From the NCBI GenBank assembly GCA_008632985.1, contig QPGO01000071.1:235516-299515 (forward strand): a stretch of 64,000 nucleotides of DNA. The letters run 5' to 3'. Under the pieces are notes generated by a model. It had not been told where the DNA came from and did no database searches. It saw nothing but the letters and a program-made list of their open reading frames with translations. Each line of letters begins with the position of its first letter. Position 1 is the first letter of the stretch. This document shows, piece after piece, positions 1 through 44,330 of this stretch. The DNA comes from Psammoneis japonica. Its lineage: Eukaryota. The translations under genes and the position numbers were made by a program.

Positions 1-199
1 TGTTTGTTGTTGCACTTTGACCCACCATGAGATCATGGACGGGTCATCTGACATCACCACGCTCCACAGACACAGCTGTGTGACAACAACAACAGCTTAG
101 AAGCATGTGCCATGCTGCTCTGCAGAGTGTCAGAACAAATTTCTCATGCAGAAAAAGTTCTTGAAGTGACCATTCATTGCTGGTGTTTCATGTCTCATT

Positions 200-930
200 C
201 TAACTTGCATGTTCCCACAGCTGTTGTTGATCAGTGCTTGCCATCATGCCTGGGCACTTGACATGCACTGGAGCCTTGCCCATGCAGCCATCATCTGCTT
301 CAATGCATTCCCCTTCCTCCAGTTGATGGAGCAATCTGTCTTGGAGAAAGATCATCACATTCTCTGCAGAGAAATGGCCCTGAAATCCAAACAATGTTGG
401 AAGTGCAAATGGCAGCTGCAGCTTCATGCCAGAGACCAGAATGCTTGAACATGAGCACAGAAGCATCCATCTTGTTCTCCAATCAGAAGCAACCTGTTTT
501 TCACAACAAAGTCAGTGCCATCATCCACAGACACAAGGCAATCATTGCCGGTGTCATCTGTCTTGCAACTCTCCCAAATGATCTCATTTGAAGATGAGTT
601 CAACAGAAAAGATTGGGTGAGAGCTTGCCAGCTCTTGTTGTCAAGCAAGAAACAACAAGCAGACAAACAAACATCACTGCCCTTCAGACAGGAGATCTCC
701 TTGAAGATCCAGCAGATCCAAGATCTGTGGGTTGCCTCATCCACACCTTCAACACAGGAAGCAAGAAACAACAAGCAGACAAACAAACATCACCACCCCC
801 TCCAGACAGGAGATCTCCTTGAAGAGCCAGCAGACCCAAGATCTGTGAGTTGCCTCATCCACACCTCCAACACAGGAAGCGCCCAAAAAAGCTCAGTGTT
901 TCAGGCCCAGAGCCTCAGCTTCTGCCAACT
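200..930 (-). pseudogene. PIF/Harbinger-like (DDE_Tnp_4-type) transposase remnant, frameshifted
   Basis: Fragments GVDEATHRSW, IIWES..DCLVSVDDGTDF, FKHSGLWHE..IVWISGPF and CIEADDGCMG align with the transposase at 14475-15543. Confidence 0.75.
643..880 (+). repeat. Tandem duplication of about 116 bp inside the transposase remnant
   Basis: aagcaagaaacaacaagcagacaaacaaacatcac...aacacaggaagc starts at 643 and again at 759. Confidence 0.9.
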
Positions 931-1744
931 GGCAATGATGACAGGCACCTTCTTCAAACTCTTCTTTTTGCAATGTGTTTTGAATGCAACATTTCAAATG
1001 TGACAGCAATGTCTGTCAGGGTGATGCAAACAAGCCAAGCCCTCCTGGCTTGAACTTTCAGCACAAACTTGCCCTCCAAAGAAGAAAGATGATCACCGGA
1101 AGGCGCAAGCACCAGCTCTCTTGCAGCATTTTCTGCTGTGAAGCAGCTGCAACTCTCACTTCCACACTGTTGCAACCAGGATGTGGACAAGTCTCCCATT
1201 CTGGAAAGACCAAATCTGGGGCAGTTGGGCTGGCATGCTGCCAGACCAGCCACAGAAGCAACTTCTTGGTGCAATCCAGAAATCAGCTTGCAACACAGGC
1301 TGTTTTTGATGTTTTGCGGGGATGCACCAAAACAATGACAGAGACAATGGGCACCCTGGCAGAGCATTGTGTGTTGTCGAGGAAAAACTCGTCCATGTCG
1401 AGGTGGCAATCTGCAGAGAAAAGGCCATCGGCGGAGAGAACTGGTGTTACTCACTGTACAACGATTTGGCACTGAGCACAGGACCAGCTCCTCAGTCACG
1501 GATTGATTCATCTTAAATTCGGAATCTTCATAGATGTATAAATGCGTATGTACAGATATTTGTGAATGAAAATTTGCTGCCAACACAAAAATCTGAAATA
1601 GGCTTCCTTAATCTTCTATTTTAAAAAATCATGCTCCACGCGTCATCGTCCATCGTCGCATCGTCCATCGTCCCCACACCCGATCGTCAAGATGACACGC
1701 AAAGTAACACAAATAGATGTAGATAGAGGCGGCTTGGCAACATA

Positions 1745-2787
1745 ATGACGTCTACCATGTTGGTTTCACTCTTGTGTTGTCTGATTATCAGAAACTTGAA
1801 CGCTTTTGTGCTTCCTCTTCCTCGCTGTCCTGTGGCAAAATCAAACGATTTGTTGTTCCCTCGCTTTGCAGTTTCATCCTCACGAGGGGCGATTGATTGG
1901 CTAAAGAAGGAACCTGTGGAGTCCTTACTGCCCAAGGAGGATGCACTCGAGATTATTTCAGAACTCCTTTCCAACGATGAACTCATAAACGACAGCGAAG
2001 AAGTGGTGACGACCAATTGGGAAAAGCTGGAGACTAGACTGCGGGACGAGACTAGATCGGCAAAGGAGATTCTCGGTCAGGAAATTACAGATCGAGTTCT
2101 CACTTCGGTAGAAAATGTTGAAGGATACGATCCGGATGCCGTGCGTGCCTTTCTAACAAGTGATGCAGTTAATTCTCTCTTTGCTCGTATTCTCTATGAT
2201 GGGATCTTTGAATTCTTTCAGGTAGGTGATCGTCGCACGCGCTGTGGTTGCCTGATCACCCATCTTCTTCTTACACTTCCCTCTTTTCTCCACTTGTTTT
2301 GCAGGTAATCGATGTTTTTGGAAATATTGTAAATTCTCTTCCTATTATTGGTCCAATTCGTAAACAAATCGTCACAGAGACAAAGCGACAGCTAGATAAA
2401 TCCTTGGGTCCGCTTGTGCAGAACTTTTTACAAACCTACACAAAGATTGCAGTGGTACAAGCTAGCGAATTCATCTTGTCGCCCGCCAATCAAAAGGCAT
2501 TTGGTGGCGCCAATGCTCGTCTCGTATCGAGTCTTTTGGAACGACCCTTAAACACCCTCCTCCCGCCTTCGGACATGAGTGAAAAGCTGATTGACGATGC
2601 TTATGGCTACTTGCGAAATGCCAACATGACAGAGGTGGAGCGTTACCTTGGCTTTGTGTACGATTTCGTGGGCGACAAGAGCGTGGAAAGCTTTACAGAT
2701 GTAGATCGAGTGCTTGATGCTTCCCCTACGTTGCAGAAGACGGTTGATAGGATATGGGATGGAGTAACCAATGCCAAATCAAGCTGA
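1745..2787 (+). CDS. Hypothetical protein, probably plastid-targeted; 2 exons (intron 2222-2304)
   Basis: GT..AG intron joins FFQ|VIDVFGN in frame; hydrophobic signal peptide followed by NAF (ASAFAP-like) motif. Confidence 0.8.
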
Positions 2788-3122
2788 CCAGAGCAAAGCT
2801 AGCTGGAGGACACCTGCTGGTTTAATCCTGCGCGACAAAACACATCCGGGCATGGTTGACATCAGGCTAGCCATTGTTTGTGCTTCATTGTCTGAGCTCA
2901 AGACCGATGCCAGGTAACCAGCTCATCGAACCGGCTCTGGATTGTTGCACAAAAACTAGAGAGGGTTACTCTTCATTTCCGTAAAAACGGAACCCAGAGA
3001 AGATAAAACAGTTTCGCCTCTCTGGCTAGCTAACAATAAGCGTTGTTTCGTTTCACAAGAGTCCTCAGGTATTCTCTCTACTAGAGAGTAGATTGATGAG
3101 TCGTTGATCGGTGCTTTGGAGT

Positions 3123-3320
3123 CGTGACCGGCCACTCCGACAACCTGTGTGATGCGTATTGCTTCATGAAAATCATTTGAAGTCGTTTTTTAGCGTTCGA
3201 TCGAAGCTCGATATTTCGGTGTAGATTCATTATAAAACTTACATTTTGATTCGTGCTCCCCGCCCACGCAAAATATTTAAAAATAAAGAAGAAGCCAAAA
3301 CTGAGGGAGTTCGGAGTGAG
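3123..3320. mobile_element. Short non-autonomous (MITE-like) relative of the element at 11901-13889, with TpA retained
   Basis: 3184-3318 aligns with 13750-13879; inverted cactccga (3133-3140) / tcggagtg (3311-3318); left end cgtgaccgg also occurs at 11903. Confidence 0.55.
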
Positions 3321-3457
3321 GGCAGGGAGTCGCGGCATGTTGGATGTTGCTTGTTTTCAACATAGTAGGTATTGCGCTATCGTCCTCTGTCCTCTTGCTT
3401 GGATACCAAACAACGGTGTTACACGCTCTCCTTCGACTCTCGGAGAAAACGAATCCG

Positions 3458-5719
3458 ATGGATCCTCAACAACCACCAATACAAACCTGTAACAGAACAA
3501 GAAGTCGTGCGCCGGTAGGTTACTCCGTACCCGAACGTGGGCAGCATTACCGGTACAAGAACAGGAGTGGATGGAAACCTGCCAACTTTGATGATTCACT
3601 TCCACCAATCGCGTGGAGGTCGAAATACCAACAACTCTGGGACGTTGTGCACAATTTCGTCAGGTTCGTGACCGGAACAAGACTCGTCAATTGGTTCCGT
3701 GACAGACAATGGGACACTGTCCCAAAAATGGTATACAAGTCTACTAGCGAAGATTCGGACTATGCAGCAACTGTCATTTTAATGGTCTTAGGTAGGTGGA
3801 CAGAAGGTCTCAATCTCCTGTTGCGATCTCTTTTCATTCTTTGGTCGGTCCTTGTGGTAGACTCCGTCGAGGTGGTGGGACGGACGTGGTGCATGCCATG
3901 GAGGGCTATAATCCAACCCAAAGGGTCCCTCCTTAAACTGTTGAGACCATGGAAATGGCTGTTGGGAGGAGGCTGGCATTCAGGGAGTTTGAGCTTTAAA
4001 GTGGGTAACCCCATGAACGCGGTTTACGTGTATCTGGTAGCGCCCGGGCGTGTTAACGGCCTTGGTAACGAAATATGGGCCGAAGGAGATGTGGGCATGT
4101 TAGCCATCTTCACGTTGCACCTCGCCTTTGGTTTGGCGTTTTTACAAAATCTGACTCTCGCGATGATGGGCGAAGTTCTACAATTTGACAAACGTTGGGT
4201 TGTGATTTCTGTACTTTTCACAGTACACGGATGCTATGGGGAAAAGATACGGAGCGATGTGCCAAAACTGGCGGGCGAAGTCTATTTTGTCTTGAACAAG
4301 AAGGAGAGGGCGGCCGCGATGATTAATTCCCTCACTAGCGCTGAAAGAGTGGGTTTGAGGTTAACGCAACGCGAGGGAGTTGCGATTTCTTACTATCAAA
4401 GGAGGCCAGCAAGTACTGACTGGGTTTGTCCGACTGAGTTAGGTGCCTTTTTAGCCAGCTATGATGGGAGGATTTGGCTGGACAGGGTTGCCAAGATTTA
4501 TGGTGTCCAAGACACCGAGTGGGCCCACTACGGTTTATTGCCTTATGTAGAATACCCGGTGATATTAATTGTACCGGAAACCACTTGGGGTGACATGTTG
4601 TTACGTCTTGGGGTGCAAATCGACACAACAGAACTGGGGCAGAGCGTCATCTGCGCAGACTTAGTCGCTTTGTCACGCTCCTGGTTAGTTGCTGAGCGGA
4701 TGGCGGGTGCATCCGGCAGGGGTGTACGAACCTGGGACAATCGACACTACGGACTGCTAAGCAGGACTCTTAAAATGATGGTCAAACTGAGTGGCCAACC
4801 ATGCACTGGTGAAGAGTTCTGCCGTTTCTTGCACATGCAGTTGCCGACTTACACTTGGGTCCGAGACTATAGCGTGTTGCCGATAGGGACGAAGCTGTGG
4901 GATAGCGGCAGTCCATTGTGGAATGAGGGACTATTAAGGCTCCATACTTCCCATCGTACTGTCAAGGCATTCCTCGCCTCAGATTGTTACGAACCTAGAG
5001 ACAAGACCGGCTTGGTACTGCGAATGTCGTGGAAAACAGGTACGCCGTTCTGTAGGAGGGCAGTATACGACCTATTTTGCCGGTTCAACAAACCATCCGG
5101 GAGATTGAGTCCGTTGGAAGCCACTGAGATCAGCTTTGCCCTATCACAGCCACCACCCAAGGAAATGTGCTATGGCTATTACCCCTTGGCCCCAGCTCTG
5201 TCCTTAGACTCTCTTCAGGCTTGGTTGGGAGAAGAATTTGACATAATGGATGTTGTGGATGGCATACAGTGGAGACAGATCCCCGACAAAAGACCGGGGT
5301 ATGTGCTGACACGAAAACATGCGCTCGGCCGTGAGGTTGTAAAGGCAGCCGGGAACCGAGCGGGGATTAACCGCTGCGAGGGGAGGGTTCTGCTTCAAAC
5401 AATTTCTGAGTGGGGTTTTCATGCTATTTCGGTCAACTTCGATAAGGAAACCAGAGCAGGACAACTCAGTGGTGAATTCTTCCAGTTCGACGACAATATT
5501 CTTCGGTGGAAGGCATTGGAAGCTTCAAGAGACTTCATCACAGAAAGGGATGTATGTGCAGCAGTACGCGACGTAATATTGGACACGTTGCACGGAAGGG
5601 CTAGACCGTGCAACATTCTCTTGGAAGGGGTTGAACTTGAGGACGGTGATTGGCCGCAGGTCCCGAGCGCAGTAGTTGTCCGCTTAGATGGGCCTGTGGA
5701 GGAAAACTCAAGATTCTGA
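3458..5719 (+). CDS. Intronless orphan protein of about 750 aa with several hydrophobic segments in the N-terminal half
   Basis: Long uninterrupted ORF (track start 3344; the ATG at 3458 begins MDPQQPP); normal Tyr and TpA content; no motif recognised. Confidence 0.6.
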   Translation: MDPQQPPIQTCNRTRSRAPVGYSVPERGQHYRYKNRSGWKPANFDDSLPPIAWRSKYQQLWDVVHNFVRFVTGTRLVNWFRDRQWDTVPKMVYKSTSEDSDYAATVILMVLGRWTEGLNLLLRSLFILWSVLVVDSVEVVGRTWCMPWRAIIQPKGSLLKLLRPWKWLLGGGWHSGSLSFKVGNPMNAVYVYLVAPGRVNGLGNEIWAEGDVGMLAIFTLHLAFGLAFLQNLTLAMMGEVLQFDKRWVVISVLFTVHGCYGEKIRSDVPKLAGEVYFVLNKKERAAAMINSLTSAERVGLRLTQREGVAISYYQRRPASTDWVCPTELGAFLASYDGRIWLDRVAKIYGVQDTEWAHYGLLPYVEYPVILIVPETTWGDMLLRLGVQIDTTELGQSVICADLVALSRSWLVAERMAGASGRGVRTWDNRHYGLLSRTLKMMVKLSGQPCTGEEFCRFLHMQLPTYTWVRDYSVLPIGTKLWDSGSPLWNEGLLRLHTSHRTVKAFLASDCYEPRDKTGLVLRMSWKTGTPFCRRAVYDLFCRFNKPSGRLSPLEATEISFALSQPPPKEMCYGYYPLAPALSLDSLQAWLGEEFDIMDVVDGIQWRQIPDKRPGYVLTRKHALGREVVKAAGNRAGINRCEGRVLLQTISEWGFHAISVNFDKETRAGQLSGEFFQFDDNILRWKALEASRDFITERDVCAAVRDVILDTLHGRARPCNILLEGVELEDGDWPQVPSAVVVRLDGPVEENSRF

Positions 5720-6089
5720 GGGATTAAGCTGGTTAGATGTGTGCACAATCGCCTTTGCCTTTTAAGGTAGTCAATAGACCTTTCTTCATTTCAAGATTTT
5801 TGCCTGGGTACGGACAGACTGTACGTCAAGCGGAAATTGTATTGGGCAGAAAAGGGGCAATCGTCCAGCTACGTAGGTAGCTCTTTATAAACTGTGTAGG
5901 AAATGTACCAGGGTTTGTGTAGAATTTGATAACGACACAATTCCATTTTGATAGCGACAAGTAGAAATTTACATAATTTTTCAGTACAAATTTGACAGCG
6001 ACGTCAAAGACGGAATCCATCCATCAACATGCCAATTACTGCATGAATGAGCATTCGTCTCCGTAACACAGTAACACACAGTGTCGACA

Positions 6090-9000
6090 ATGGCAACGTC
6101 AAAATCAACTGATTCCTCGGTGCCACATCCACCTACACAGGAACATGTGTCAAATGACGAGATGCCACCGTCATCTCAATTAAACCAAGTGCAGCAGCAA
6201 GGAATCCGAGTGGAGGACGAGTCGTTGGAGCCAGCAAACTCGCGTCTCCTGACACACGCCGTGCCAAATCCATGCGCTGTACCAAATCCATATGCGAGAA
6301 GACCTGAGGCAGAACAACAGAAGAAAAAAGGGCGTGGACAAGCCAAAGGAAGCACGTGCAAGCGAAGGACCAATGCACAGATTGAAAGAGACAAACGAAA
6401 AGAGGAAAAGGAGCAGAAGGAGCGGGAACGGAGAGAAGCCCGAGAGCGCGATCGGATGGGGCAGCAAGAGGCAGATCAAGCCAAGGCCAGGGCCCCACAA
6501 AATTTCTTTTTACCACAAGTGGCTCATTCACGTGCAACAGCAGATGAGATTGATGCAAGCGCCGTTTTGGCAGCAGCTCAGCCTGGTGCAGACGGCCCCG
6601 ACTCTGTGGCAGGTCATGCTCCAGTCGCAGATGATGGAGTCGCCACTGCTCCAGTCGAAGAAAACAATTTCAATCAAGAAGATGCTGTCCCTCTGGCAGA
6701 GCTGGCACAACCACAGCCACCATCAACTGCAAAAGAGCCAACTGATGCAGACCCGCTGCCTGGCATCAATCTGGAGCAGATTCCCCCCATGTTCAGGAGA
6801 ATTGCAGGCAGCACAATGCATCAGCTCTGCGCTGATGTGAAAAGGAAAACGAAACAGTCGAACCAACATGTTCGGCATTCAACTGGGGCCAAGGATTTTC
6901 CATGGAAGTCAGAAGAATGTGAATGGGTGAGGCCTTTTGAGCTTCAGAGACCGGCAACTTTGGCGGACATGCTGGTTGAGCACTTCTGTCGCATCATGTT
7001 CTTTTCTCCAGACAGAACCGCTCCACACCTGCTGCCCACAGGTCAAATGCCATGTAAATGGCATGGCTTTGGATGTGATCCGGAGACCAAGCAGCCTTGC
7101 ACATGCCGAGATCTATTTTTCAATGACTTTGTTCGTTCATTTGTTGATGAAGACGGGTCAGTTGGCAGCACATTTTCCGGGCAATGCTGCTGCAGCATTC
7201 GGGCGCCAAGGGACGTCAAAGATGCAGCCCATGACAAATTCCGTGTCACTGGCAATGATTGTGGGGACGATGTCAACAACCATTCTTGTTGTTTCGCAGG
7301 CCACTGTGATGAGGTGCTTGCTCATCTCACAGCGGATGTACGAGGAATTCTGAGTGTGGTCATGACAAAACGTCGTGCGGTGACGGTCCAGTTGTCCAAC
7401 CACATTTTCAAAGCAGTGTCTTTGAAGAGGAGCTTAAATGCGATTCACAATGAGCTTGTTGCAAAGCAAAAGAACAAGTTTTACGAAATGAAGGAGCAGT
7501 TCCAAGCTGTGCATTTCAACCCAAAATTGCGAGGCACTGTGCAGAGTGTGCAGAAGCTGTTGTTTGAAGCGGCTGTGACGACAAAGTTTGAAGCAGCCAT
7601 CAAACATGATCCTCCATCCAGGCAGCATCTCCAAAGTGTCTTCATGAACCGTGTGCTTTCAAAGTTGCCACATTTCGAGAGATGCCTTGAAATGGTGTCG
7701 GGGAAGGTTCTTTGTGTGGCGACAAATCACACAAGGTCGTAAAGTTTGCATTCGTTGCTGCCACTTCCGCTGGGAGCGTGAGAGCATGTGATTCAGTCTA
7801 CATGGTTGTGAATGAATGCAACCAGGTGGCAGACATTCGCTTCGTTCGCAGCGGGGACCATGATGAGGTTGAAAATGTCTTGAAGGCGATCCAGCATCGA
7901 CACAAGGCACATGCCTGCGATGAAGTAGAGTCATTCTACACAGACAACTGCTGCCATGAGTGCCCCATGATCATCAGGGCGATTCCATCCTTGGGAAAGT
8001 CTGACAGAAGCAATGCAATGGAAGCTGTCATTCCTCCATTGGCTGCCTTGCCCGACGGCAGCACTCCAGCAGTGACAGAGACCTGCGAACAACTGAAGGA
8101 CTTTTGTCTCCCGATCTTGACGGCTGTTGACACAGTTGCTGAAGAGAAAGTGTGCATCGGTTTCGATGTGGAGTGGGACAGCTTGACTGATGAAGAATTG
8201 CGCAACCAAGTGCCAGTTGTCATGCAGATTGCCACTGACAACCCTTGTCCTCAATCCATTGGCGTTGTCAAATTGTGGAGCATCTTTCCCAACATGACCC
8301 GAGACAGCAACGGTCAGTGTGGCATCTTGGACGTCAGCAACTGGTGCGCAACAAACAGTGCATTGCGTCAATTGCTGGCACATGCAAAGGTGCACTTGGT
8401 GGGCGTTGATGTCAAAGGTGACATGACGAGACTCCGGAACCATTGTCCAGAACAGCTGTTTGGTGTCGACTCCATCAAAACCCTGGACTGCCGGGAGCTG
8501 GCTGACAGACATGGATTGTTCCAGTGAGGCGAACAGAGGAAAATGGAAACAATGGTCAAAAAGCTCTTGGGCAAATGTGTTGACAAAAGCCTTGCTAGAT
8601 CCAAATGGAGTGCCCGTCAATTGTGCCCGGAGCTGGCAGTTTGCGCTGCACTTGATGCGTGGCTCTCGCTCCTCCTTTGGAACGAGCTACAGAGACTGGC
8701 TGCAATGCACCGAAAGCCGAACAGAGATGAATTGATGCCTGGGCTTCCTGTTCATCTCTTCTCTCTAACATCAAACACAGTTGTTGCGCATGGGAAGATG
8801 CATGATGTCAATTTGAAAGTGGAGGAGGCAGTTGACGGAAAGCCAAGAACGTTCGAGGACATTAAGGTCACAGCAGCCGCGGTGGCAAATCTGAGTGCAA
8901 AAGTTCCCCATCTTGTGTTCAACAGAGCCGACGATGCACTCCATGCACTCAGAGACTCCATGGCCGGGGACAATTGCATTGCACAGTGGAAGAGATCCCG

Positions 9001-11267
9001 AATGGTTGTGTCGACCGAGAGGCTGATGTGTCAAGCACTGCAGGTCGACACAAATTTTCAGACGACATGCAAAGCAACAATGAGGTCGAGGGTTCCAGTG
9101 AAGCTGGAGGCAGCCTGGATGAAATGGCCCCAATTGATCACCAAGATGACAGCAACGGAAGCAATCATGCCACTGGCGCCGGCAGCAGCAATCACAACAG
9201 TGTCAGTGTAACCGAGGAAGATGCAATCGACCAGGATGTCAGCGGCGCCGTGAACACCACAAGCAATCATGCTGGCAACGGATCATTCGAAGACGAAAGC
9301 ACAACCTGCAGTCATGCTGCTGGTTCCAGCTCACCAAGTGGAGACCTCAGCCAACAAAGAAGAAATGAGGCACCTGCCAGAAGGAAGCAGCCTGAGTGAG
9401 TTCCCAGACTCACATGGCTCTCGGCTCTCGAAACGAACACGATGATGATGAGCTCCAGCATGATCATGAGGACGGCGACATTGAGTCACTTGCTGGGGAT
9501 GAAGCAGCTGCCGAGGTGTTTGCACGAAACTGTGTGAAAGGGGATTGCTTCCATTTTCTCAAGGACATCAAAAGCACTTGGAAAAAGAAGCATGGTTTTT
9601 ATGAAGAAGTGTCGGGACTGCTTCGCGACTCCATGCTGCTGATCAATCAGGAGCGGCTAGACCTTGAAGTCAAGAAGCTGGTGGCAAAGCTCACAAACCA
9701 TGTGCAGGGCAGGTGGTGCAACAATCACAAGGAAGCAAAGAAGGAGGCGCAAAGGAGGATGAATCGGCCGTCGTCCAAGACCTTGGCGGACACAGAGAGA
9801 ACAACACCCCAACCCAGCGATCTTTTGGTGCGAATCAAGAGAACGGTTTGATTCATCGCCAATGTCAAGTGCGCCAAGTCCGGGGAACCACTCTTTTCAA
9901 AGGAAACCTGGAAAGTTCATTTCAACTTTGTCAAACATGTCCAAAAAGGATGTGTGAGCAACAGACCAGGCTTTGACTGCTGCTGCATCCGAGCCGATCC
10001 GTCGAGTGGGAAAACAACCATGCATTGCATTTGTGGCACTTCGCAGCTCGAAGGCTTTCACAAGCACCCAAAAGAAGCTCTAGTGGCACATCATTCATCC
10101 CCCTTGCTAGCGGTTTGTCTTTTGGCCACATTTGCACACCGATGGAACCATGATCGCGCAGCAGAAAGGGGACTTGCACCTTCCGAGTGCTCGCAATTCT
10201 ACAATCACAAAACAGTCCACAACATGCAAACCACAAACTATGAGCACGGAGTGCATCAGTGCCAAGGTGACCTTGTAAACCCCAATGACTTTGGACATGC
10301 CGGAGGAGGTGCACACATGCCGATTGAGGACCGGTGCATGGCAACAATCAATGCAGAGGATTCCAAGTCACCTGCAGCAACAGTGGAAAACGCCATGTCC
10401 GAAGCTTTGGAATTCCTGGCCGAACGAGATGGAAGGGATGGTGTTCCAGTTGCTCAGGTCACCGGCCATGAAGCTGAATTGTTTCAGGAAGCACTCCCAA
10501 GATTCGCGAAAGCAGCACGAAACAACCAAAACCAGCGCAGTTTGCATGACTTTGCACGCATGAATGCGTGCTGGGATGATCTGGTAGATGCTGAATGGCA
10601 AAAACCGCTTGGCGAGCATCGTCAGACATTCCGGAAGACAGCACCTGTTCTCTCGGCACATTGTAAAAAGGTCGAGAGACAGAAACTCAAAGCTCGCACC
10701 ATGCGGCAAACTGCAACCACTTGTGACAGCACTGGTGTAGAGAGAACAGTCATTGTGAGTGGGGAGACAGACAGAATCCGAGCAGACATTCAAGAAACAG
10801 CTCGTGTGCAAACCTTTTGTGCTCCTCTTCCAAACCCACCAGAAAGGTCTGAGCCATTTGGGGTTGCAGGAGAGTGCCAGCCGTGAATTTGCCGCCAGTG
10901 AACACAAGCAGATCGGCTTGAAATGCAGCTGTGTTGGAATCGGCAGCTAACAGGTGACACATCCGAATGCCTGATCCTCCACCACATCAAGAAAACAGGA
11001 AAAGAAAAGCTTCCACTTGCAGTGCAGCGCTGCTTCCGTTGTGGCTTGACCCGAAATGGTCCACGTCACAACCGCAGGGCAAAGCCCAACAGCACTGAAT
11101 GCTGCGCCGTGCCGGCTGAGGACAGGGTGCCACACTGGGAAGTGCCAGATGGCTGCAATGCTGGAGATGATCTCAGAGCAGTAGACTCAAACATTGCAAA
11201 GCGAAAATGGAAGAAGATCCGATTGGACAACAACATTGGTGTCGACCCTGAGTTTCCAAATTGGTGA
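6090..11267 (+). pseudogene. Large DDE transposase of the C/DxxH group (Mutator-like) with an embedded WRN-type DEDDy 3'-5' exonuclease; disrupted
   Basis: Putative D1 CGDKSHK (7721), D2 FYTDNCC (7943), DxxH KGDCFH (9543), E GTSQLEGFH (10050); exonuclease motifs IGFDVEW, LVGVDVKGD and CAALDA; frameshift near 7713 and TGA stops at 8525 and 9849. Confidence 0.7.
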
Positions 11268-11900
11268 CGATGGATGAGAACTCGGCAATGACAAAATAAA
11301 TGCACAACCCAGTGATCAACACTTGCAGCTTCATTGTTGTCATTCAACACAGTTGAAGAAGACGGCATTCATCACTGCTGACACCACCTGCGCCACTCCA
11401 ACACTGCGTGCAATTGCCGTGCCACAAAGTGTGTCACGCATCTGGGCGTCGTGCGTGATCATTGAACATAGAGCCCTCTCTCTCGCCTCCTCCTTTTCCT
11501 CCTCAAGTGAGACCAAAAAAATCAAAGACTGACATCATGACGTTTTCTTGCCAAACAGCTCGAAATCTACTCAATCTACTTCTGCTTGCCTGAAAACCAC
11601 TCATTTGTCAGAAAACGAGCTCCTGGTCACAAGAAAATCCAGGTGGTCATGCGCGCTTTCACGCGAACAAGACCCCATGCAGAACAGGTTGTGTGTGCTT
11701 TTCATCATTCTTCGGAGTGACATGCAGACTGTGCTGAGATTTCCTGTAGAAAGCCAGCAGAAACAAGTAAAAAATCTGCTTCATTTTTCTCGTAAAATGG
11801 CCAAAATCTGCTTTACCCACCCGACATGATGTCAGTTTTTGAGTTTTTCGGTGGCACTTGTCCTCCTCTTTTTTTCATAAAATCGGAGCTACCTGCTGTG

Positions 11901-13889
11901 CACGTGACCGGACACATGCCGAATTTTTTGTTGGAACTCTCCCTGTGCCTGCCATCAAATTGCGTGACACTCTGGCAATGGACATCAACAACACATCTAT
12001 CTCGAAGACCAATCACCGCCTTGCCACAGAACACATTGCACACAACAACACGTCTTTGTGTGTTGCAAATGAGCGTTGTCAACTTCAGCTCCGTTGGGTC
12101 TCATGCAGAGCTGGCAAAAGCTCTTGGTGTGCCTGAAGGTGCACTGGACTTGGTGTCATTCAGCGAGTCCCCTTGCAAGGGCACGAGAGGCAACAGCAAT
12201 TGCATTCACCCGGCGGTCTGTCAAAATCAGGGACACTGTGTTGTTCATGGCCATTCTTGGCATCCTCGTTTGACCGACAGGAAAGGAAAGCCGAAAGAAG
12301 GGGCAATGCGGCCATCCACTTCTTGGGCCCGAGTTCCTGCCATGACACAACGGCCAATCCGCACCCGCCGCTTGCTGCTGTGAGAACCCAATCTGTGAGG
12401 GCATTGGGTGCTCTCATTTTGGTGTGTTTGTCTTCCTGCCGGCCTTGCAGACAAAAAGCTGTTCTTGCAAAAGATGGGAGTTTTAAACAAAACCATCAAA
12501 AAGTTGCTGGAGAATGGAGAATGCAGATGCGTTGCAACATGCCCCTTGGCACCTGCACCACCACAACCGGCATCGTGGAGAAGATGGGAGATGGAAGATT
12601 CAGGACCGTAAAGAATGTTGAGATGGAGACAAATTTGTGCATCTGCTCCCGCCTCCAATTTGTGATCTGCAAGAATGCATCAACAAAGTGAGGAACCCAT
12701 CACTCGGTCATGGAAGGAGCTGCGCTGCCACAGGCAATGCATTGCCGGGTCGGGCATCCAAGATGGCAGCCACACAAGCAGGAAATGGGCAGCCACTCCG
12801 TGCAATTAATGATGCCAAAAGTCAGGATGCAAAATGAACTCTGACAACCGGCAATGACAACCAACGGCACAAACGTCAGGTGGTTGACCCAGAAGAGCAT
12901 GAGCGCATCAAGGAGGAACTCCGGCTTGTAAAGGCAAAGCTTGAAAGTGCATTGACAAGGAACAAGGAGGCAGAAGCTGTGATGGAGATCAAGTGTGGTG
13001 AACTCCGAATTGCACTTGAACATCAGATGGGGAGAAAGAGAACTGTGAGAAGCAAGCCATCGAGAACATGGAGAATCTCATGGCGACAAAAGCAATTCTC
13101 TCTTGTGATGATCTAAAGCCTGGAGGCTCATTGGGGGGGTTTGTTGGGGACTGTGCCTGCTTTCCCACATTTAAATGCAACGAAGCCTTCCTGGAGTTTC
13201 TCAATTGTGGCGAAGCATGCAATCCTGGCGACGGCTTGTGTGAGAATGTCAGACGGTGCTCCAGGGTCGGCTGGGAAGAAAGGAGCGCAAATCGTGAGAG
13301 AGATGGAGCAGTGCGGGAGAGTGGCAATGAGTCAGATTTCTGTGTGCCGCTGGACGATTCAATGGGCAATGGTGAAAATTTTGAGAACTCAACCAGAAAG
13401 ATTTAAAATTATGACACAATCAACAGCTGGAACATCATCTGTGGAACGAGAGCTTTCTGATGATGTTGCTTTTATTTCCATGCCCCTGACAGATCCAAAT
13501 TCTCGTCCACATGTCCTGCCGACCCCGCACTTGCGCGCCACAAAATCCCAGTGCGTTTTGCTTGAGCAGGCGTTGCTTCAGCAAAAACTGGAATTACAGC
13601 ACAATCAATGGCAACAACATCATCTGCAGAACGAGAGCTTTCCAATGATGTCATTTTTATTTCCACACCCCTGACAGATCCGAATTCTCGTCCACACATC
13701 CTGCCGACCCCGCACTTGCTCACCACAAAATCCCAGTGCGCAATCGCACTTTTTTAGCATTCAATCGAAGCTCGACATTTCTGCATGGATGATTCAGTGT
13801 AAAACTTGCATGTGATCACATGTGCTCCACAAAACATTAAAAACACAGAAGAAACCAAAACTGATCGGTGTTCGGAGTGTCGGCACATG
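11901..13889 (+). mobile_element. Internally deleted DNA transposon with fragments resembling a transposase N-terminus
   Basis: Imperfect inverted ends cacgtgaccggacac..ccga (11901) and tcggagtgtcggcacatg (13872-13889); broken ORFs 12070-13400 (coiled coil, FPTFKCNEAFLEFLN..GDGLCEN); subterminal repeats. Confidence 0.45.
13416..13740 (+). repeat. Direct repeat of about 140 bp, period 185 (13416-13555 and 13601-13740)
   Basis: Shared aacatcatctg..gaacgagagctttc..ctgacagatc..aattctcgtccaca..ctgccgaccccgcacttgc..ccacaaaatcccagtgcg. Confidence 0.9.
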
Positions 13890-14474
13890 TTGTTTGTTGT
13901 TCTGCAGCGAGAGACAGACCCTGTGTGTCTGAGACAGTTGTCATTTTCATTGCATGAGGGGTGAACCTCGGTGGAGACGACACCGGAACGAAGCTGCGGG
14001 AAAGTCAGGTTATGAGCCAAAACCAGTGCTCTGATGCTGTCGTGAAACAAGACTGTGTCGTGCGCCCACGACCCCATGTTGGCGGAAACAGTCTGCATGC
14101 GGTTCACGTGAAAGACGGCAAGACCGTCGATTTTTTCAAGAGAACAAGACGATTTTGGCCCTCTAGTTCAAGTTTAAGCCTGGGACCAGATTTGATTCTT
14201 GGTGGGGCACTGCCACCACAATTGAGAGCCATTGAGCAGCCAGTTTGCATGATGGCAGTGACACAGAAATCTGATGGAAAGAAAACGCAAAAATGAGTGC
14301 GGCACGGTGCTGCATTTTTGTCCGCGTTTGGAATCCCTGTCGCAGGCTCCAGCAGCTTGCAACAGATGTGTCATGCTGCAGCATCTAAATGCATGTCATG
14401 ACTGATGAAAAGAAACAGTTTGCCATCCATTGCAAATGGAGCTGGTGCAGATTGCAGCAGTGTGCTGTTGCGAT

Positions 14475-15543
14475 TCAATCCCTGCGAAATTGCAACCCTG
14501 ACTGAACCTTGTCCGGCTTTGGCAATGGAACGTCTTTCGGACTCGGCTTCAGATTTCCATGCAAATCTTCTGTGCTAAAAAGACCTTCACCACACTCAAA
14601 TGACAATTGTGTCACAACAGTGCAGGCACGGAAACATTGGCTGTGCAGGTGGATGTCGTGACGAAAGCGTTGCGAAAGACACCCAAACAGCTTGAGACGA
14701 TCATTTGCCATCTCTTGTTTGTTGCGCACAGCCCCTCTCACCTTGGCGACAACTTTTGGCTCCACACAGTGAATCCCACTCGTGCTCTTTACATGCTCTG
14801 GGTCCTCCGCTCCGTAGCCATCATCGGCTTCGACCCTCTTGTTCTCTCCCAAATGGTGCTTGACAGAGTGACGGAAGATTTTGAGATCGGGCCAATCTCC
14901 ACAAGGAAACGGCCCATTGATCCACACAATGTCACCGGTCAAAATGCACACACAAACTTCACACCAGAGGCCAGCCTTTTTGAACTTGAAAGAATAAAAT
15001 GCCTTTGGGTTTTTCCCTTGGCTGGTCGTTTGACAATCGGCACAATCGACTGTCACCAAGCAGTCGAGGCCCTTGTCTCCAATGAGACGATTCGACCACA
15101 CAATCTGTGAAACCCGCAGAGGAAAAGGTTAGACTGAGCATCATTCACGTGACACAATCAGGCTGAAAACTCACCACTTCGAACTCCAAACACGAAACTC
15201 GGTCAATGAAGAACCAACTCCACTTGCGAAACATCTGTTCGTCAACTCCGCCACATTTGCAAGCAAGGTCTTCTTCGGTTTTGCATGTTTTCACCAAAAG
15301 CAACGCCCAGAGTAGATGAACTGGCTTTGCACATTTCTCATCTTTATCTGGCTCTGATTCTGGGTCGGGAACGCCAATCCTCAGCCCAATCCAGATGTCG
15401 ACACAGACAGCGGGCTCAACAGCAAAGTGAGACATCCACCGTCGGTTGAACACCACTTCGCTCCCAGTCCACGGGCAGTGGTTCATGATTTCACTGCCAA
15501 GTTCAATGAATGTGTCGTGGTTGGGACCCGGCATCTTCTTCAT
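14475..15543 (-). CDS. PIF/Harbinger-like DDE_Tnp_4-type transposase, 2 exons (intron 15174-15105); frame open but heavily substituted
   Basis: GTGAGT donor, CTAAC branch point, CAG acceptor; motifs VTVDCADC, IVWINGPFPCG.WPD, EADDGY and KQEMANDRLKLF. Confidence 0.8.
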
Positions 15544-15911
15544 GGGGGGTCCTGCCGCGGCATCGCCCTGTGGGCGTCATCGAGTCAACGACATCGTGGG
15601 GTGTCGTTTTCTCCGCAAAACTGGGCACGCCAAGATGGATGCAACATCAATGATTCTCACACAGTCTCAAATGTGTGTTTTTTGACGAGCCGTTAAAAGT
15701 CATGCGTTGATGCAGTGCGGTTGTACGACAACACAGGCAAACACTTTCGAACTGCTTCGCACAGCACCGTGATGTACGACGCCAAACAGCTGTGATTTGA
15801 GTTGGAGTTCTCAATCCATTGAGGTCACATGATAAAATGCAATGTTGCAGCTTGTGTGTGTGTGTGAAGTGTAATTTTTGCATCTGCAGATGTGTGATTT
15901 TTCAGAATCTG

Positions 15912-16016
15912 GAATTTTGACCGGACTTTTCGATTTTGACCGAAAAAAGAAAGTCCGGTCAAAATTCAAATTTTCGGTCAAAATGAGCCGAAAAAAAGAG
16001 GCGCATTTTCGGCTCA
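15912..16016. repeat. Cluster of three perfect inverted repeats (18, 14 and 11 bp)
   Basis: 15912-15929/15950-15967; 15933-15946/15971-15984; 15984-15994/16006-16016. Confidence 0.9.
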
Positions 16017-16468
16017 CTTCACACAACTCTTTGACAGTGTGTCATTGTGTTGTCCAACGGCCTTTCGCTTGAAGACAGGACAGATTGAAGTGACCGGAAA
16101 ATGAAAAAGACCCATTTGAAATTTCGGGCCGAATTCGATTTTTCCGGTCGGATTAATCGGATGTCCGTTGCTTGGCCAGAATTCTCTCAACAGACCGGAA
16201 ACTGGTCGTTGATGTCCAATGATCATGTTCAGTTTTAAAGCTGTCATTGTCAATGTTGCTGTCAAAGCTTGAATGTGATTTAATCATGTGTCTCTGCGTC
16301 ACCTGCACAACGAAAACGTGGCATGGTGCGCGCAGGCAGCCCAAACGAAGGCTCTCGATGGCTTTCGAAGAACAAAGCCGAGGCTCCATGCTCGCTCAGA
16401 AGCCAAGACGCAGACGCATCCACTCGCACTTCTGAGCTCTGATCATCGTTGTTTGCTTTCTCCTGTCA

Positions 16469-17736
16469 ATGGGACCGCGTTGGGGAACAAAGCAATGTCA
16501 CGAGTGCACGAAGCACTTTAACTTGTTCCATGCCAGCAAAGGCAAAGAGGGCTGGGACCCCAACAACACCGAGGAGGCACATGTCAAGTCCAAGACCGCG
16601 ATGTTGGATGTCATCCGTCCTTTTCTGCATCGCAACCTTGGTGGTCACAAAGATCACAAATTGTCTGACAAGGCTCTTGGTGGCTGCAAAAGAGCCTCCA
16701 GTGAGCATTTCGTTGAGTTGGCCATTGACGGAACCCGTCGAAGTGTGTGAATTGTCGCTTCACCCTGTTGGTTGTTGTTCATGCTCACATTTGCCACGAC
16801 TCACGATGATCTTTTTTTTCCTTGACAGAAGCACACCTGGCAGATGAGGAGAAAACAGGCGCACGGGCAACTCAAGCAACAGCAGGACAAGGGGTCACAC
16901 GGCTGCCGCAAGGAGGAGACGACGACGACAACTGCGACAGTGCCAACGACAGCAACTGTGAGTTTGAGGAGCAAGAAGACAAATCTGAGGAGGAGGCAGA
17001 TGATGAAGGCAACAGCGACGAGCAACAAGAACCCAGGAGCACTGGCAGTGTGAAGACCCCCAGTGCTGCACCAAGCAAGAAGTCCAAGACGAAGAGGACT
17101 CCCAAGAGCTCCTCAAAAAAGAAGTCGGGCGCAGAAGACTCTCGTCTCACAAGAGACATGCAGGAGAAGCTGAACATCTCCGGCTGCGCGCGCCATGTCC
17201 GAGACGATATTTTGCCATGCTCCCTTTGTGTCTGGACGGAGCCGGACTCGGGGATCAACCACGTCACGATCGAAATCGAGCTCCTTGGCACGATGGTGGC
17301 GCAGGACTGCAAGCCGAGCATCGCGCGCGATGGTGCAGAGGCAACTGTGGAGTGCAAGTTCCCAAATGGCGGGGACCTGATGGACCCAGCACACCTTTTG
17401 TTGACTCACAAGGATCACATTGATTTTTCAGACCAGCATCCGAAGCATTCAGCTGAGCAGAAAGCAATGAGGGCCTTGAAAGAGTTGAGTTTTGACAAAG
17501 AAGAAGACAGGAAGCTCCATGTTGAGCTTCCTTTCCCTTGCAATTTGAGTGGATTCTATGATCCACTCAAGGATGAGGATAACCAGCATCCAGCGGTCAA
17601 CCTGTGTCCGATTCATCCACGGGAGAGTGTCCCTGAAGGTGCGCCGAAAGCATCCATGAAGAAACTCGAGCTGACCCTGGAGAGCTTGGAAAAACCCAGG
17701 TGCACGCAAGAGGTTGTGTTGGCTAGTTTCTTCTAG
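16469..17736 (+). pseudogene. Transposon-associated second ORF, divergent from the transposase; probably 2 exons; acidic and Lys/Ser-rich tracts
   Basis: ORFs 16469-16750 and 16822-17736 lie inside the TpA-poor island and are almost Tyr-free; a two-ORF layout is typical of Harbinger elements, but no Myb motif was recognised. Confidence 0.45.
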
Positions 17737-19768
17737 GCAGTGGCACACAATGTAGTTGTAATCTAGATTGCATTGTTTGGGGCACTTTTGTCTGGCTCTA
17801 ATTTTTCCATCGGATGTTTTTCAAATCTAGCTCTTGCTTGTGCAAGGCACTTGCTTGCGACCAGCATGTGCTGGGCCGACTGATGGGGTCTAGCACTCCT
17901 AAATGAAATCAGAATAAGAACATCAGCCTGGCGAGACGTCTGGACAAACTCCTTTCACATCGTAATTGACCTGCCGTTCACGGCAGTGGTCTTCTTCCCG
18001 TGTGGATCCGCAGCTGACCTGAATGCGCAGACGACTGATCTGTGCGCCGAATCCCCGTTTCGCGTTTGCGGAATAGGTATCCAAACTTTACGCGTCAGAA
18101 CATGACTTCACTGCGTGAAACAGGGGTCACTAGAGCCGTAGGCCTGGTATGTTGACGTCATGCGTACATTTTGTACCACAACACTGTGTAAAAAATAACG
18201 TCACAAGCCGTCATCACTCTCGAAACTCGATGCGCCGAAGAAGTTGTGGACGACCATGATGAATACGCAACGATTCTGACGGTAACAAGTAAGTTTATTC
18301 TCAACGGTACATTATAGAGCTCCTGTATATTCTTTTCTTCATTGAATGATGTAAGATTTTTGGTTGAAAACAGTGTAAAATATCTTGTAATCGGCTTGCA
18401 AACATGAAGGACTAATGCAAATCAAAATTCGAAGGCCTCTCCCTGCCAGTAATTAGCACCACTTTCTAAGATAAACCCACTCAAGAGCCCTAGATGACTA
18501 GCTTAGATACACATTGCATCAACAATGGATCTCTAAGAGATGCTTAATAACTTAGATACTTTCTTCTGCTGCTTTAGTCGGACAAGCCAGGTTCGTCACA
18601 ATCTCCAGCACAACAGCTTCCGGCGTCTCAAGCACTTGTTAAACGTTTCTGCTGATTCATATCACCCACAATCATTGCAAAAGAGGACTCATGGTAAGAC
18701 ATAGATGACATGACGACCATTCATAACGATTCTTGCTGCAGTCCGAGTCGATTTGGTTGTCAAGTTGGGCGACTGGCAAACAACTTCCAGGCGGATCTGT
18801 GATTTTTCTGCTCATATAAAACCACCCCGATAAGCCAGACACCTCAGCCTATCATCTTCTATGTATATACGAGTGAATAGACGTGATTGTATCCAATGCA
18901 CTCCGACTTCGACGTTGGAAACGGCGTTGTCGGTCGATGCACCTGCGGCAGAAATTTTGACAGACAGCAAAAAATGAGTTAGTAAAAGTGTGATAATTGA
19001 CAGTTTGAGTGGTACTCACCCACTAGTATCCTTCCTATAGGCTCGATGAAGACATTCCACTTGTGATTACCACTCAAATTTAAATGTTGACGACGTCGCA
19101 ACCGACTAGTCACCACGCTCGACGTCAAGTTCGTGCCACCCAAAAACACGAAGCACGGCGGTGCTTGACCAACAAGCACGAATATCCATGAGTAACTCCA
19201 TCCACACCACCACTTTTATTGAATCGTTCAAAGAATGTATGTAACCTTTGATGTGCTTCGGTCATAGAGGCATTCGCAAGCTTCGATTAGGTGGAGGCAA
19301 CAACAGCGAAAATGCATGAGAAGTGGTAGATGGGAAAAAAAAGCATCTAAAGGAAAAAATTGAGCAGGAATCTCTATGTCATGTGCTCCCAATATGGTAT
19401 GGAAGGACTCTCCAGACGAGATTCCTGCTCAATTTTCAATGTTAACGCCGCCGTCAACGATTTTCTTACCATGGTCGATGTCTTTTTTTCTCGTGTAAAA
19501 AGCACGGAGATTTTCGGATGGCGGACGAACGTGCAAAAAAATATTTTAGTCGAATCACTCATCTATAAGGTCCCTCCACGTAGAAACTTTCACGCAGTGA
19601 CTTGCTTTCCCGCAGCTTCAACAAGCTTTACTGAAGAAATAGGCTTTGGCTTTGGAACAAACAAATTATTTCCTTCTTTCCGAAGTTCTGCAACAGCAGT
19701 TGGAACAAACTCAACGGTCATCACACCGTAACACATACCGCCGCAAGCAGCAGTCTCTGTTATCGAAC

Positions 19769-24447: not shown

Positions 24448-25467
24448 ACTTCGATAGGTAGCCAACTTTTTGCCTCACACGTTTGTACTCCGAGCTAGCT
24501 ACTCTACTAGAGCTCCGAGAAAGCAAAACTCTGTGCAGTTTTCACGAGAGTTCTCAACCTACGTACAGTCAGTACGGACAAAGCTGTAGCTTCGACGGAC
24601 GTGGCGGGGTCGAATATCGGAAATTTGGCAAAAGACCGCGGGTTTAGATCTAAATAGAAGATGTCTTTTGATGTCAACTATGTTAAATAGAAATCGATAT
24701 TACTTCACTGTCATTTATTGAAACAAGATTGGAGTAGTTAATCAGTTAAGTAATCGATATTCTCAGTGATGGTCGACATTCCTGAACAAGAATTGTCTTA
24801 TGAAATGTGCGGTCAATGCCATGTCTTCTATATGTACTTCAGAGCAATGTTGATTAGGATATGGCGTTTAGGACGTATCTTGGTCATCGAGATCAAGGTC
24901 GCTTGGTATGCAGATACACGTGAAACTCTGCGCAGTGCCGTTTCTTTGACACTTCTGACCGCACGCGTCTTTGTCTGGCGAATGGCAAGATTTGTACAGT
25001 AGAGACCAGAGGAATGCTGCGACGCATCGCATGCGCTCGAGCTTGCTGAGCGCTGCAACTGTGGGGCCCCATTCCAACCACGTCCGTGACGCTGTTTGCG
25101 CTGTCATCGAAAACCTCCGCCTCCTCCTCAGTGGTCTGCACCAATCCTGCCACTCATGTCTTCCTCTTGAGCCCTCCAGGTTCCTCCCTGAGTGCCGTCC
25201 TCCCTCAAATGTCCCATGAAAGCTCACTTCCTTGTTGTCAAAGTTTCTGCCCCTCCAGCTTTCTTTGCCTGCCCCTGCCTTCTGGCACCTTTGTTGCCAA
25301 GGCTGGCCTCAGCAGCACCTCCTGACACAACAACAAGCTCTTGGCTGGGCCACAACAGGCCTGCCTCCAACCTCCAACAGCTCGTCCACCACCCGCTGCT
25401 GCCGCCGCCAACAATGCCGGCCTCTTTCTCTTCTCCCTTTTGCTTTTGACCATCTTGGCAGCACTGG

Positions 25468-42411: not shown

Positions 42412-42699
42412 GTCGCGATCTGCATCAAGCAATGGAAGGATATAGCTCTGGTAGTCTACTCAAAACACCGGTAGGAGTATGATTGAAGCTGTTGTCTACC
42501 TTCGACATCGGGTTCTGCCGTGAAAGACAGTGGAAGAATAAAGACGGCGGCTCTATCGATCATCGTTGCGTTATGAGAGTTTGCAGAGATCCATCCGTTC
42601 AGATAACGGTCATCGGCAACAGAGCAAACAAATCCGTTCAGATAACGGTCAACGGGGACGCAGGCTTGCATTCTTTGCGCTTTTTGATTATCACGATAC

Positions 42700-44330
42700 G
42701 ACAAGGTGGATCAACTGACCGGCTTGTCACGCACCGGAAGAATGGGCCGGCCGCCGGATCGTCGATTTGCGGCGACCGGGCAGACCTGTCCACAGCTCAT
42801 TGATGGACAGGTTGTGGCGACACTGGTGGCAGTGGCTGCCGCAACGACGTCGAAGTTTGCCATTGATCTGCGTCTTTTGGTCAATCTGAAAAAAAAGGGC
42901 AGGAAGATTCGTTTGGCGAGAACCAGATTGTTTCATCCACAATGTCTTGCAAGTGCAATCCAATGCAAAGCAAGTGCATCTGCAGGCTCAGTCAGCTTGT
43001 CAGTGGCCTGACCCAGATGTCAGCTTCACAAAGGCGCAGCACCAGCAAACAATGGATGGAGCACGTGCTCAATGACTCGAGAGTTGTTGGCTGCTGTCTC
43101 TGCCACCCAAGCCATTTGTTGCCATTGGTGGTGTCCTTGACCTGGCTGTCAATGTCATGTGAAGCCTTGTCATCCATGAGAGAAAACAGCCAAGGCCAGC
43201 CCAGCAGCAGAGTTTGCACTTTCATGGCAACAGAGAGCACACATTGACATGGCGGCGGTGCAAAAGGGGGCTGATCAACAGGAGTTTCATGAGGTCATTT
43301 TCCCGCACAGCCAGGCTGCTGCTGAATGGGTCAAATCAGAAAGACAACCCAATGATCTGCTTGGTCGACTGAAGAATGAGTTGGTTTCAGCAGGGGATTG
43401 ACACCTGGAAGCCTTTGCAGATCCTTCAAAGTTTGCGAACCATGTGGTGAAGCAAGTGTGGATCAGTTTGTGGTGAACATGGTCAAGAAGATTCACAGCC
43501 CAGAAGGTGCTGCCAAAGTTGTCAGGGGGGCACCATGAGTTGCCCTTGCCACCGGGGGCAGGCCATCAAGTTGGCCAGCTTCAGTGCCGCTTCAGTCATT
43601 GTGCAAGATGCAGATGATTGGCAAATGCTGGAGATGGTGCCAATTGAGAACATCAAGTGCAAGAACCTCAACATGGTTGAACACACCCAGGCATGCTGGA
43701 GAGGACTTTGTGACAGATTCAAGGCCATGACCAAGCAGCTCACCCAATGGTGGCTGGGAGAGACCGCCATGAATTGCCTGCACATTTTGGATCTGTCCAA
43801 CAAGATCACGAAACTGCTGGTGGCCAGATGGATCAGCACGGGGCATGCCAGGTGCACCACTGGTGCTGCAAACTGACAAGGCCAGTTGTCTGTGTCTGGC
43901 CTGTGCTGTGGCAACCAACGGGCTGTTGGCACACGATGCTCTGGAGGCAATGTCTCGACACACCAAATGCAGGCCTGTTGCTGTGCATGTGTTGAATGGG
44001 GCAGTCCAGCCCCAGCTCCTGGACAATGGCAGCACAGGACAAAAAGGGTGACGGATCGCCAGCAACACAACAGTGTGGGCGGATGGCTCGTTGGAGGCAG
44101 ATGCAGGCATGGCCAACACAGATGGGAAGCAGCACCATGGCGTTGAGGACAACAACTCTTAGAGAGACTTGCAGTCCAGGTGCTGAAGCAAAAAAATGAC
44201 AATTGAAGTGAAATGTTGGAAATCTCGGGACAGTCCTGTGTCCTGTCCCCACAGAAATTTCCAGACGTGGCAGTCAGTCCTTCTCCAGTCACGCAGCCAA
44301 TTGGGGGCCGTTGTGGCTTTTTACAACATT
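42700..44330. mobile_element. TpA-depleted repeat island with possible degenerate terminal inverted repeats
   Basis: Essentially no TA from 42700 to about 44320; weak inverted similarity between 42730-42791 and 44226-44295. Confidence 0.6.

Follow-up and report, generated by a model that had tools for sequence, protein, structure and literature searches.

Homologous segments inside and outside a TpA-depleted tract of Psammoneis japonica DNA differ at TpA and CpG sites

Two homologous segments in the 64,000-nt stretch of Psammoneis japonica DNA analysed here (the window; contig QPGO01000071.1, positions 235,516 to 299,515) have met opposite fates. Copy A, in a spacer between two genes, retains its TpA and CpG dinucleotides, whereas copy B, inside a tract that has lost most of its TpA, carries CpA or TpG at corresponding sites. 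The best explanation overall, and one that we consider probable, is that TpA was erased and CpG decayed tract by tract, with copy A spared outside the tract. To our knowledge, DNA-level TpA rewriting of selected tracts has so far been described in one alga, in one 2026 preprint. Such a process could be aimed at foreignness, silence, repeats or length, and the simplest natural control for the question of aim is a homologous pair whose members fared differently inside and outside a tract. The window shows that local sequence is not sufficient, that a large domain is not necessary and that flanking bases matter. With five TA sites and an indirect polarity, the pair is a pointer to a genome-wide test and not a result in itself.

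The homologous pair and its asymmetry

The original prediction had matched 3184-3318 to 13750-13879, and this homology is real. Sensitive blastn over the whole window returned a single non-self match for positions 2000-6200, namely 3186-3324 against 13750-13885 (75.2% over 145 columns, E 2e-18), and in a self-comparison of the whole window copy B was again the sole match of copy A. Local pairwise alignment extended the match to the full segments given in Table 1 (3186-3349 and 13750-13899). In that alignment 120 columns are identical and 26 contain a gap; the 24 mismatches comprise 11 transitions and 13 transversions. MAFFT agreed, and it also offered a leftward extension of 25-35 nt, for which the signal was too weak to claim. 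Comparison of the tandem unit or the flanks of copy B with the flanks of copy A gave no significant match, and the scores fell inside the shuffle range. The 13 transversions and the indels indicate that the duplication is old, and this great age leaves many histories compatible with the pair, which weighs against the explanation by tract.

The two copies differ strongly in dinucleotide content. The core of copy A (139 nt) holds nine TA and nine CG, with observed/expected (o/e) ratios of 0.71 for TpA and 1.67 for CpG, and the TpA ratio is close to that of the surrounding block (0.67). Copy B holds three TA, with o/e ratios of 0.25 for TpA, 0.93 for CpG and 1.6-1.7 for CA/TG. The proposal that the copy between genes keeps its TpA and the island copy does not is borne out by these TpA ratios (0.71 vs 0.25) and by the count of sites (5:0). 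All of the TA differences noticed earlier were recovered (T>C at 3212, 3274 and 3284; A>G at 3232 and 3241), as were both CG>CA differences (3195 and 3199), and the TTTAGC and TTAAAA sites are intact in both copies. Two further CpG losses in copy B (CG>TG at 3252 and CG>CA at 3268) and a third TA common to both copies, in TAAAAC (3233/13800), add to this earlier tally.

Table 1. Features of the window to which the analysis refers (o/e, observed/expected)
Feature	Coordinates	Strand	Basis and remarks
Left TpA-depleted tract	1..1447	.	Dinucleotide profile; 2 TA; continues off the window
Genic block holding copy A	1448..6072 (4.6 kb)	.	TpA o/e 0.67, CpG 0.90; depleted tracts on both sides
Gene 1	1745..2787 (exons ~1745-2222, 2306-2787; intron GT..AG)	+	Borders read from sequence; TpA normal
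Copy A	3186..3349 (core 3186-3324)	+	Alignment; sits between gene 1 and gene 2, in a 556-nt spacer
TATAAAA in copy A	3231..3237	+	113 nt 5' of gene 2 ATG (3344); putative TATA box
Gene 2	3344..5719	+	791-codon open frame directly after copy A; single-copy
TpA-depleted tract holding copy B	6073..17723 (11,651 nt)	.	79 TA vs 712 expected, o/e 0.11; CpG 0.67
Broken gene copy, protein of ~1,570 aa with 3'-5' exonuclease domain	6090..11267	+	HMMER relatives, frame-segment alignment
Tandem duplication, 2 units	13394..13740 (13394-13555, 13579-13740)	+	83% alike; ends 9 nt before copy B
Copy B	13750..13899 (core 13750-13885)	+	Alignment; within the TpA-depleted tract 6073-17723
Other tracts nearly without TA	~25000-33400; 35100-37830; 42698-44159; 60414-61972	.	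Dinucleotide profiles
Isolated TA-free tract	42698..44159 (1,462 nt)	.	0 TA; normal genes around
Inverted repeat pair	60150-60268, 61787-61905	.	~1.7 kb apart; interior TA-free

TA in copy A stands opposite CA or TG in copy B at five sites, and CG in copy A stands opposite CA or TG in copy B at four; the reverse was found at no site of either kind. This asymmetry exceeds chance. AT>GC transitions hit 5 of the 18 letters inside the TAs of copy A and 1 of its 72 A/T letters elsewhere (Fisher p 0.001), so that 5/6 of the AT>GC transitions of the pair fall in TpA, and GC>AT transitions hit 4 of the 16 letters inside CG and 1 of 38 outside (Fisher p 0.023). With only five informative TA sites, the sign test gives p 0.0625 for TA alone (5:0), and p 0.004 when CpG is added (9:0). 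A genic inverted duplicate in DNA of normal TpA (48486-49906 / 52036-53459; about 1.4 kb, 67% alike) was used as a control and was symmetric, with 11:11 for TA and 20:18 for CG. Beyond TpA, the pair shows four CpG transitions, two other transitions and 13 transversions, so that its footprint is mixed; these changes are old divergence plus CpG decay.

TpA-depleted tracts and the aim of the process

The TpA-depleted tracts, or islands, were counted over the intervals 1-1447, 6073-17723, 25000-33400, 35100-37830, 42690-44165 and 60400-61980 (27,287 nt in all). Their o/e ratios are 0.07 for TpA, 0.41 for CpG, 1.64 for CpA and 1.68 for TpG, against 0.58, 0.98, 1.18 and 1.17 in the remaining 36,713 nt of the window, and their GC content is 0.50 against 0.47 elsewhere. 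The TpA and CpG ratios co-vary over the 64 one-kb windows (Spearman 0.72). At 1447/1448, 6072/6073 and 17723/17724 the tracts give way to normal DNA within tens of bases, and about 1.7 kb of normal sequence (33472-35151) separates depleted tracts. The tract at 60414-61972 (1,559 nt, one TA) lies among normal genes. The TA-free tract at 42698-44159 is the shortest fully erased tract of the window, with a sulfotransferase gene on one side and an open frame on the other, and the ORFs within it matched no Pfam family.

The TAs that survive in the islands differ in flanking context from those elsewhere (115 residual island TAs vs 1,482; chi-square p 1e-11), a comparison that takes genic DNA as a proxy for the ancestral mix of contexts. 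The island share of TTAA is 3.6 times that of the rest of the window, and those of CTAA/TTAG and GTAA/TTAC are 1.9 and 1.6 times, while the shares of ATAT and ATAC/GTAT are only 0.25 and 0.06 times those of the rest. The three enriched classes together make up 55% of island TAs and 26% of TAs elsewhere (p 4e-10). A 5' T neighbour accompanies 43% of island TAs vs 23% elsewhere, and a 5' A neighbour 10% vs 27%. Flanking bases would thus modulate the rate of loss within a tract, with TAs preceded by A erased most and those preceded by T least, and this would determine which TAs survive in copy B. Copy B lost 5/8 of its alignable TAs, together with four CpGs, and its retention of 3/8 is higher than the roughly 12% found tract-wide (binomial p 0.06), which weighs against the explanation by tract. 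The three retained TAs (TTAG, GTAA and TTAA) belong to exactly the three enriched classes and two of the five lost TAs are ATAT. The retained TAs of copy B are better explained by flanking context than by chance.

Because copies A and B are homologous and in opposite states, the process is not drawn by local sequence alone. The original prediction, that targeting depends on domain context or size and not just on sequence, stood in this respect. A large domain is unnecessary, since TA-free tracts of no more than 1.46 and 1.56 kb stand alone among normal genes. We propose that the tract of copy B underwent two context-specific processes at the DNA level, each within sharply bounded tracts. The first would convert TpA to CpA or TpG (A:T to G:C) on both strands, and the second would be ordinary CpG decay of the kind that methylated DNA would show. 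Copy A, in front of a gene in the genic block, would never have been inside a tract and would have retained its TAs and CGs in consequence. Targeting would then be by place, that is by tract, without local sequence as the guide, and silent or methylated chromatin may be what marks a tract.

Since TpA loss co-varies with CpG loss, the data point to a chromatin mark. We tentatively suggest, as a possibility somewhat short of an even chance, that a TpA eraser is aimed by such a mark, and not by homology, at individual tracts as short as about 1.5 kb, with borders sharp to tens of bases, and that it strongly prefers TAs preceded by A over those preceded by T. If so, a sequence moved into a marked tract would be rewritten and the same sequence outside it would be safe, and pairs of this kind would be natural reporters of a genome defence by DNA adenine editing that distant algal lineages share.

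The pair itself does not separate context, size and selection on a working promoter, and evidence from elsewhere in the window was considered for each. Recognition triggered by length or homology, resembling repeat-induced point mutation (RIP), would have passed over copy A as too short or too diverged (about 150 nt, 75-83% identity) and would give chromatin no part. We regard this as unlikely, although several observations agree with it. The tract of copy B has multiple copies among the contigs (summed depth 125-1200 vs 56-76 for single-copy parts), copy A has no other contig at a likeness of at least 80%, the smallest depleted tracts (1.46-1.56 kb) are ten times as long as copy A, and the TA-rich, multi-copy stretch 5856-5967 (about 110 nt) at the tract border is unmutated too. 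However, TpA loss tracks CpG loss, as a chromatin mark would predict, and tract borders do not coincide with repeat borders at the inverted pair 60150/61905. The border there cuts through the left arm of the repeat. Where this arm extends beyond the TA-free tract, TA has been kept opposite CA/TG in the right arm (4:0), and the outermost 35 nt hold six TAs that are CA/TG or missing in the right arm. A trigger of this kind also sits poorly with the main hypermutable region of Bigelowiella natans, which is reported to be single-copy (Mettrop et al., bioRxiv 10.64898/2026.01.13.699255).

Selection is a less probable account still. It holds that the process reaches copy A as well and that mutated alleles are purged there, as copy A would be the working promoter and leader of gene 2. 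Copy A is CpG-rich (1.67) and places TATAAAA 113 nt 5' of the ATG of a single-copy frame of 791 codons, where copy B has TGTAAAA, and selection may be maintaining it as a functional promoter. The entire 4.6-kb block is nonetheless normal in TpA, including the non-coding stretch 5720-6072 with its 27 TAs, and constraint on every TA of the block is unlikely. The sharpness of the tract borders, to tens of bases, argues against selection in the same way.

Direction and site of the mutations

The tract that holds copy B also holds a broken gene copy, 2.5 kb from copy B, and this allowed the direction of change to be examined with outgroup proteins. The gene copy lies in three frame segments with at least two frame changes, and the aligned parts contain four in-frame stops. 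A full HMMER search with the ORF at 6090-7739 found 46 relatives among 1.84 billion representatives. The longest of these (P0001; 1,568 aa, DNA_pol_A_exo1 domain at 548-737) aligns to 6330-7715, 7712-9016 and 9429-11264 with 34-42% identity. When P0001 was compared with the tract, 37 Tyr residues were aligned, of which 16 stand opposite Cys, 10 opposite His and 3 opposite Tyr in the tract. A second relative (P0050) gave much the same result, with 41 Tyr aligned to 15 Cys, 8 His and 5 Tyr. Between P0001 and P0050 themselves (51% identical), 38 Tyr were aligned to 31 Tyr, 1 His and no Cys. Other aromatic residues of P0001 were retained more often in the tract (Phe 36/63, Trp 15/20). Since Tyr gave way to Cys and His in the tract and was kept between healthy relatives, TAY codons became TGY and CAY. 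Judged by the two outgroup proteins, TA is shown to be the ancestral state in the tract 6073-17723 and to have been changed to CA/TG. The original prediction had treated the TA-bearing copy as the unmutated one; this direction stands for the tract of copy B, and at the five sites of the pair itself TA would be ancestral by parsimony and by the example of the neighbouring gene copy.

The gene copy belongs to a rare protein family. Its full-length relatives sit on contigs of 5.3-5.7 kb and are called 'hypothetical protein' where they are named, and the NCBI member among them has no name. In the Atlas look-alikes of P0001, which occur in fungi and chordates, DUF6729 accompanies the exonuclease domain (score 0.97). 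HMMER searches up to E 5 did not find DUF6729 in P0001, P0050, P0002, P0003 or the island ORF, and we found no paper using the name; for these reasons we do not call the gene copy transposon-borne. No relatives among longer proteins were found for 7691-8524, and none for the ORF at 16810-17733.

The outgroup result speaks against a reversed polarity, in which CA/TG would be ancestral and copy A would have gained five TAs and four CGs. Copy B is rich in CA/TG (29 aligned steps), and ordinary C>T change could make some TA. Even so, we consider this history very improbable: CA/TG in the ancestor of copy A would have had to become TA at five sites and CG at four, with no such change in copy B, and TA-bearing Tyr codons are ancestral in the tract. 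Furthermore, the TpA content of copy A equals that of its surroundings, without a local excess. We know of no process that makes CpG preferentially.

Repeats within the tracts bear on where the mutations happened. If one copy loses an ancestral TA by a change on one strand and another copy loses it by a change on the other, an adjacent CA<>TG double difference is expected. The tandem units next to copy B (13394/13579) show seven such doubles in 162 columns, and the pair 25511/30736, which resembles long terminal repeats, shows 13; the genic pair shows four in 1,381 ungapped columns. An ancestral CpG is another possible source of doubles, which are therefore not specific to TA loss. The tandem pair has only two single CpG differences, and about 1/3 of the CpGs of the tract are lost; from the ratio of doubles to singles we estimate that few of the seven doubles derive from CpG and most from TA. 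On the evidence of these doubles, the DNA beside copy B appears to have been mutated in place. Among the 40 difference rows listed out of 1,625 between the contigs and the tract, six row pairs are CA<>TG doubles, and transitions occur at 1,156/1,620 places.

The direct repeats at 25511-26204 and 30736-31667, 79% alike and separated by 5.2 kb, have the appearance of an old LTR element. The tract around them is the most depleted of the window, with o/e ratios of 0.02-0.05 for TpA and 0.07-0.18 for CpG. No gag/pol domain was found in the ORFs of the element (25511-31667).

ADAR-like editing of an RNA that was then reverse transcribed and inserted would have delivered copy B already edited and made its place in the genome irrelevant, and ADAR does prefer a 5' U/T before the edited A (bioRxiv 10.64898/2026.01.13.699255), but this origin is hardly credible, as both strands are changed within one copy (16 Tyr>Cys and 10 Tyr>His in the gene copy, three T>C and two A>G in copy B), CA<>TG doubles distinguish tandem units that arose in place, and the depleted tract covers unrelated pieces (the gene copy, the tandem array and copy B).

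Known systems and the nature of the shared segment

Alteration of both strands within one copy argues for a process at the level of DNA. The most economical chemistry would be that adenine preceded by a 5' T is deaminated to hypoxanthine in the DNA itself, and adenine deamination in DNA is also what the B. natans authors propose (bioRxiv 10.64898/2026.01.13.699255). An identical footprint would result if the thymine of TpA were modified instead.

The closest likeness is to B. natans (Mettrop et al., bioRxiv 10.64898/2026.01.13.699255). Its mutation-accumulation lines show A>G/T>C hypermutation at TpA only, at a de novo rate about 1000-fold above background and confined to two silent integrated viral regions, the integrated DNA being of giant-virus and virophage origin, and the main target is silent as well as single-copy. 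Both systems change A>G/T>C at TpA to TpG/CpA on both strands, both affect particular regions and leave neighbouring genes untouched, and in both the long-term outcome is TpA depletion with an excess of CpA and TpG. The two differ in that de novo mutations were measured in B. natans, whereas we see a footprint after the fact. The targets described there are viral, while those seen here are a broken copy of an exonuclease-domain gene, tandem repeats and unclassified repeated DNA, and here CpG loss accompanies TpA loss. A comparison of the same sequence inside and outside a tract was not met in the accessible part of that preprint. The present analysis contributes this inside/outside pair, the second pair at 60150/61905, the outgroup test of polarity and the flanking-context preference. 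Among the literature matches listed, which concern fungal RIP and unrelated diatom work, there was no description of a TpA process in diatoms.

In Neurospora and other ascomycetes, RIP converts CpA to TpA, and the DNA turns AT-rich. The likeness lies in dinucleotide-specific transitions in tracts of repeated DNA, with genes inactivated and short duplicates spared. The direction is opposite, however: here CpA/TpG replace TpA, with a slight gain in GC (0.50 vs 0.47). RIP itself was rejected as the process, since it needs TpA enrichment and the islands are depleted of TpA, with CpA/TpG at 1.64/1.68 and Tyr replaced by Cys/His. Methylated transposons lose CpG by spontaneous deamination of 5-methylcytosine, and both the CpG ratio of the islands (0.41) and the four sites where the pair shows CG>CA/TG are consistent with this decay. 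As the main explanation CpG decay was discarded because it is incapable of removing TpA; it is a companion process here. ADAR hyper-editing in animals acts on double-stranded RNA derived from repeats and leaves genomic DNA unchanged. It shares the A>G change, the preferred 5' U/T and the clustering in repeats, whereas here the genome itself is altered, on both strands.

As for the shared segment, the original prediction called it a transposon end, and this description was not upheld. No transposon or viral Pfam domain was found in 44 different island ORFs, whose sole domain is the 3'-5' exonuclease. At a likeness of at least 80%, no second copy of A was found in 140.7 Mb of contigs, a search in which the power of the aligner at 140 nt is uncertain, and one contig only lies on 2002-5336 (depth 56.2). 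Degenerate pattern scans of the metagenome contigs gave 0 matches to further copies of the segment, and no second copy was found near A or B in direct or inverted orientation. The summed depths of the bins flanking that of copy B are similar (333 and 375) and so give no hint of an element end there, and a search for element ends around the genic block 1448-6072 found only short repeats at chance level.

The shared unit looks instead like a core promoter and leader of about 140-165 nt, as read from its sequence and its position. The TATAAAA of copy A may function as a TATA box; its counterpart in copy B (13798-13804) reads TGTAAAA. The segment could have been transferred in either direction, and the comparison of the two copies stays valid in both cases. 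Gene 2 matched no Pfam family, no relative of it was found, and tblastn of gene 2 showed no similarity to the rest of the window. Over the whole window there were 0 Rfam matches at the gathering score and 0 tRNAs.

Contigs of run X2, among the matches listed, are confined to genic sequence (1737-2193, 2302-2724, 2712-3019 and 3350-5716, plus four pieces inside 18524-20000), and the depth of this run is zero over 6004-12673 and 1-1334. One break falls near the intron of gene 1, and one contig begins at 3350, where the A/B homology stops. A transcript-derived library with silent tracts would fit these observations; the run had been guessed to be DNA.

Two further places in and near the tract of copy B stand out. 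The bin 11751-12000 is the least depleted 250 nt of the tract, with six TAs and a contig depth raised to 677, and could represent an insert that is younger or was treated differently. Contig alignment also suggested joints from 5809/5839 to 11921/12181, whose sides are just 20-25 letters long; we did not rely on them. The piece at 5856-5967 has 11 TAs, lies 100 nt outside the tract border and reaches a bin depth of 822, with loose contig ends at 5856 (10 contigs) and at 5967 (6 contigs). Together with the next 40 nt, it contains three TTTGAYARCGAC-like direct repeats.
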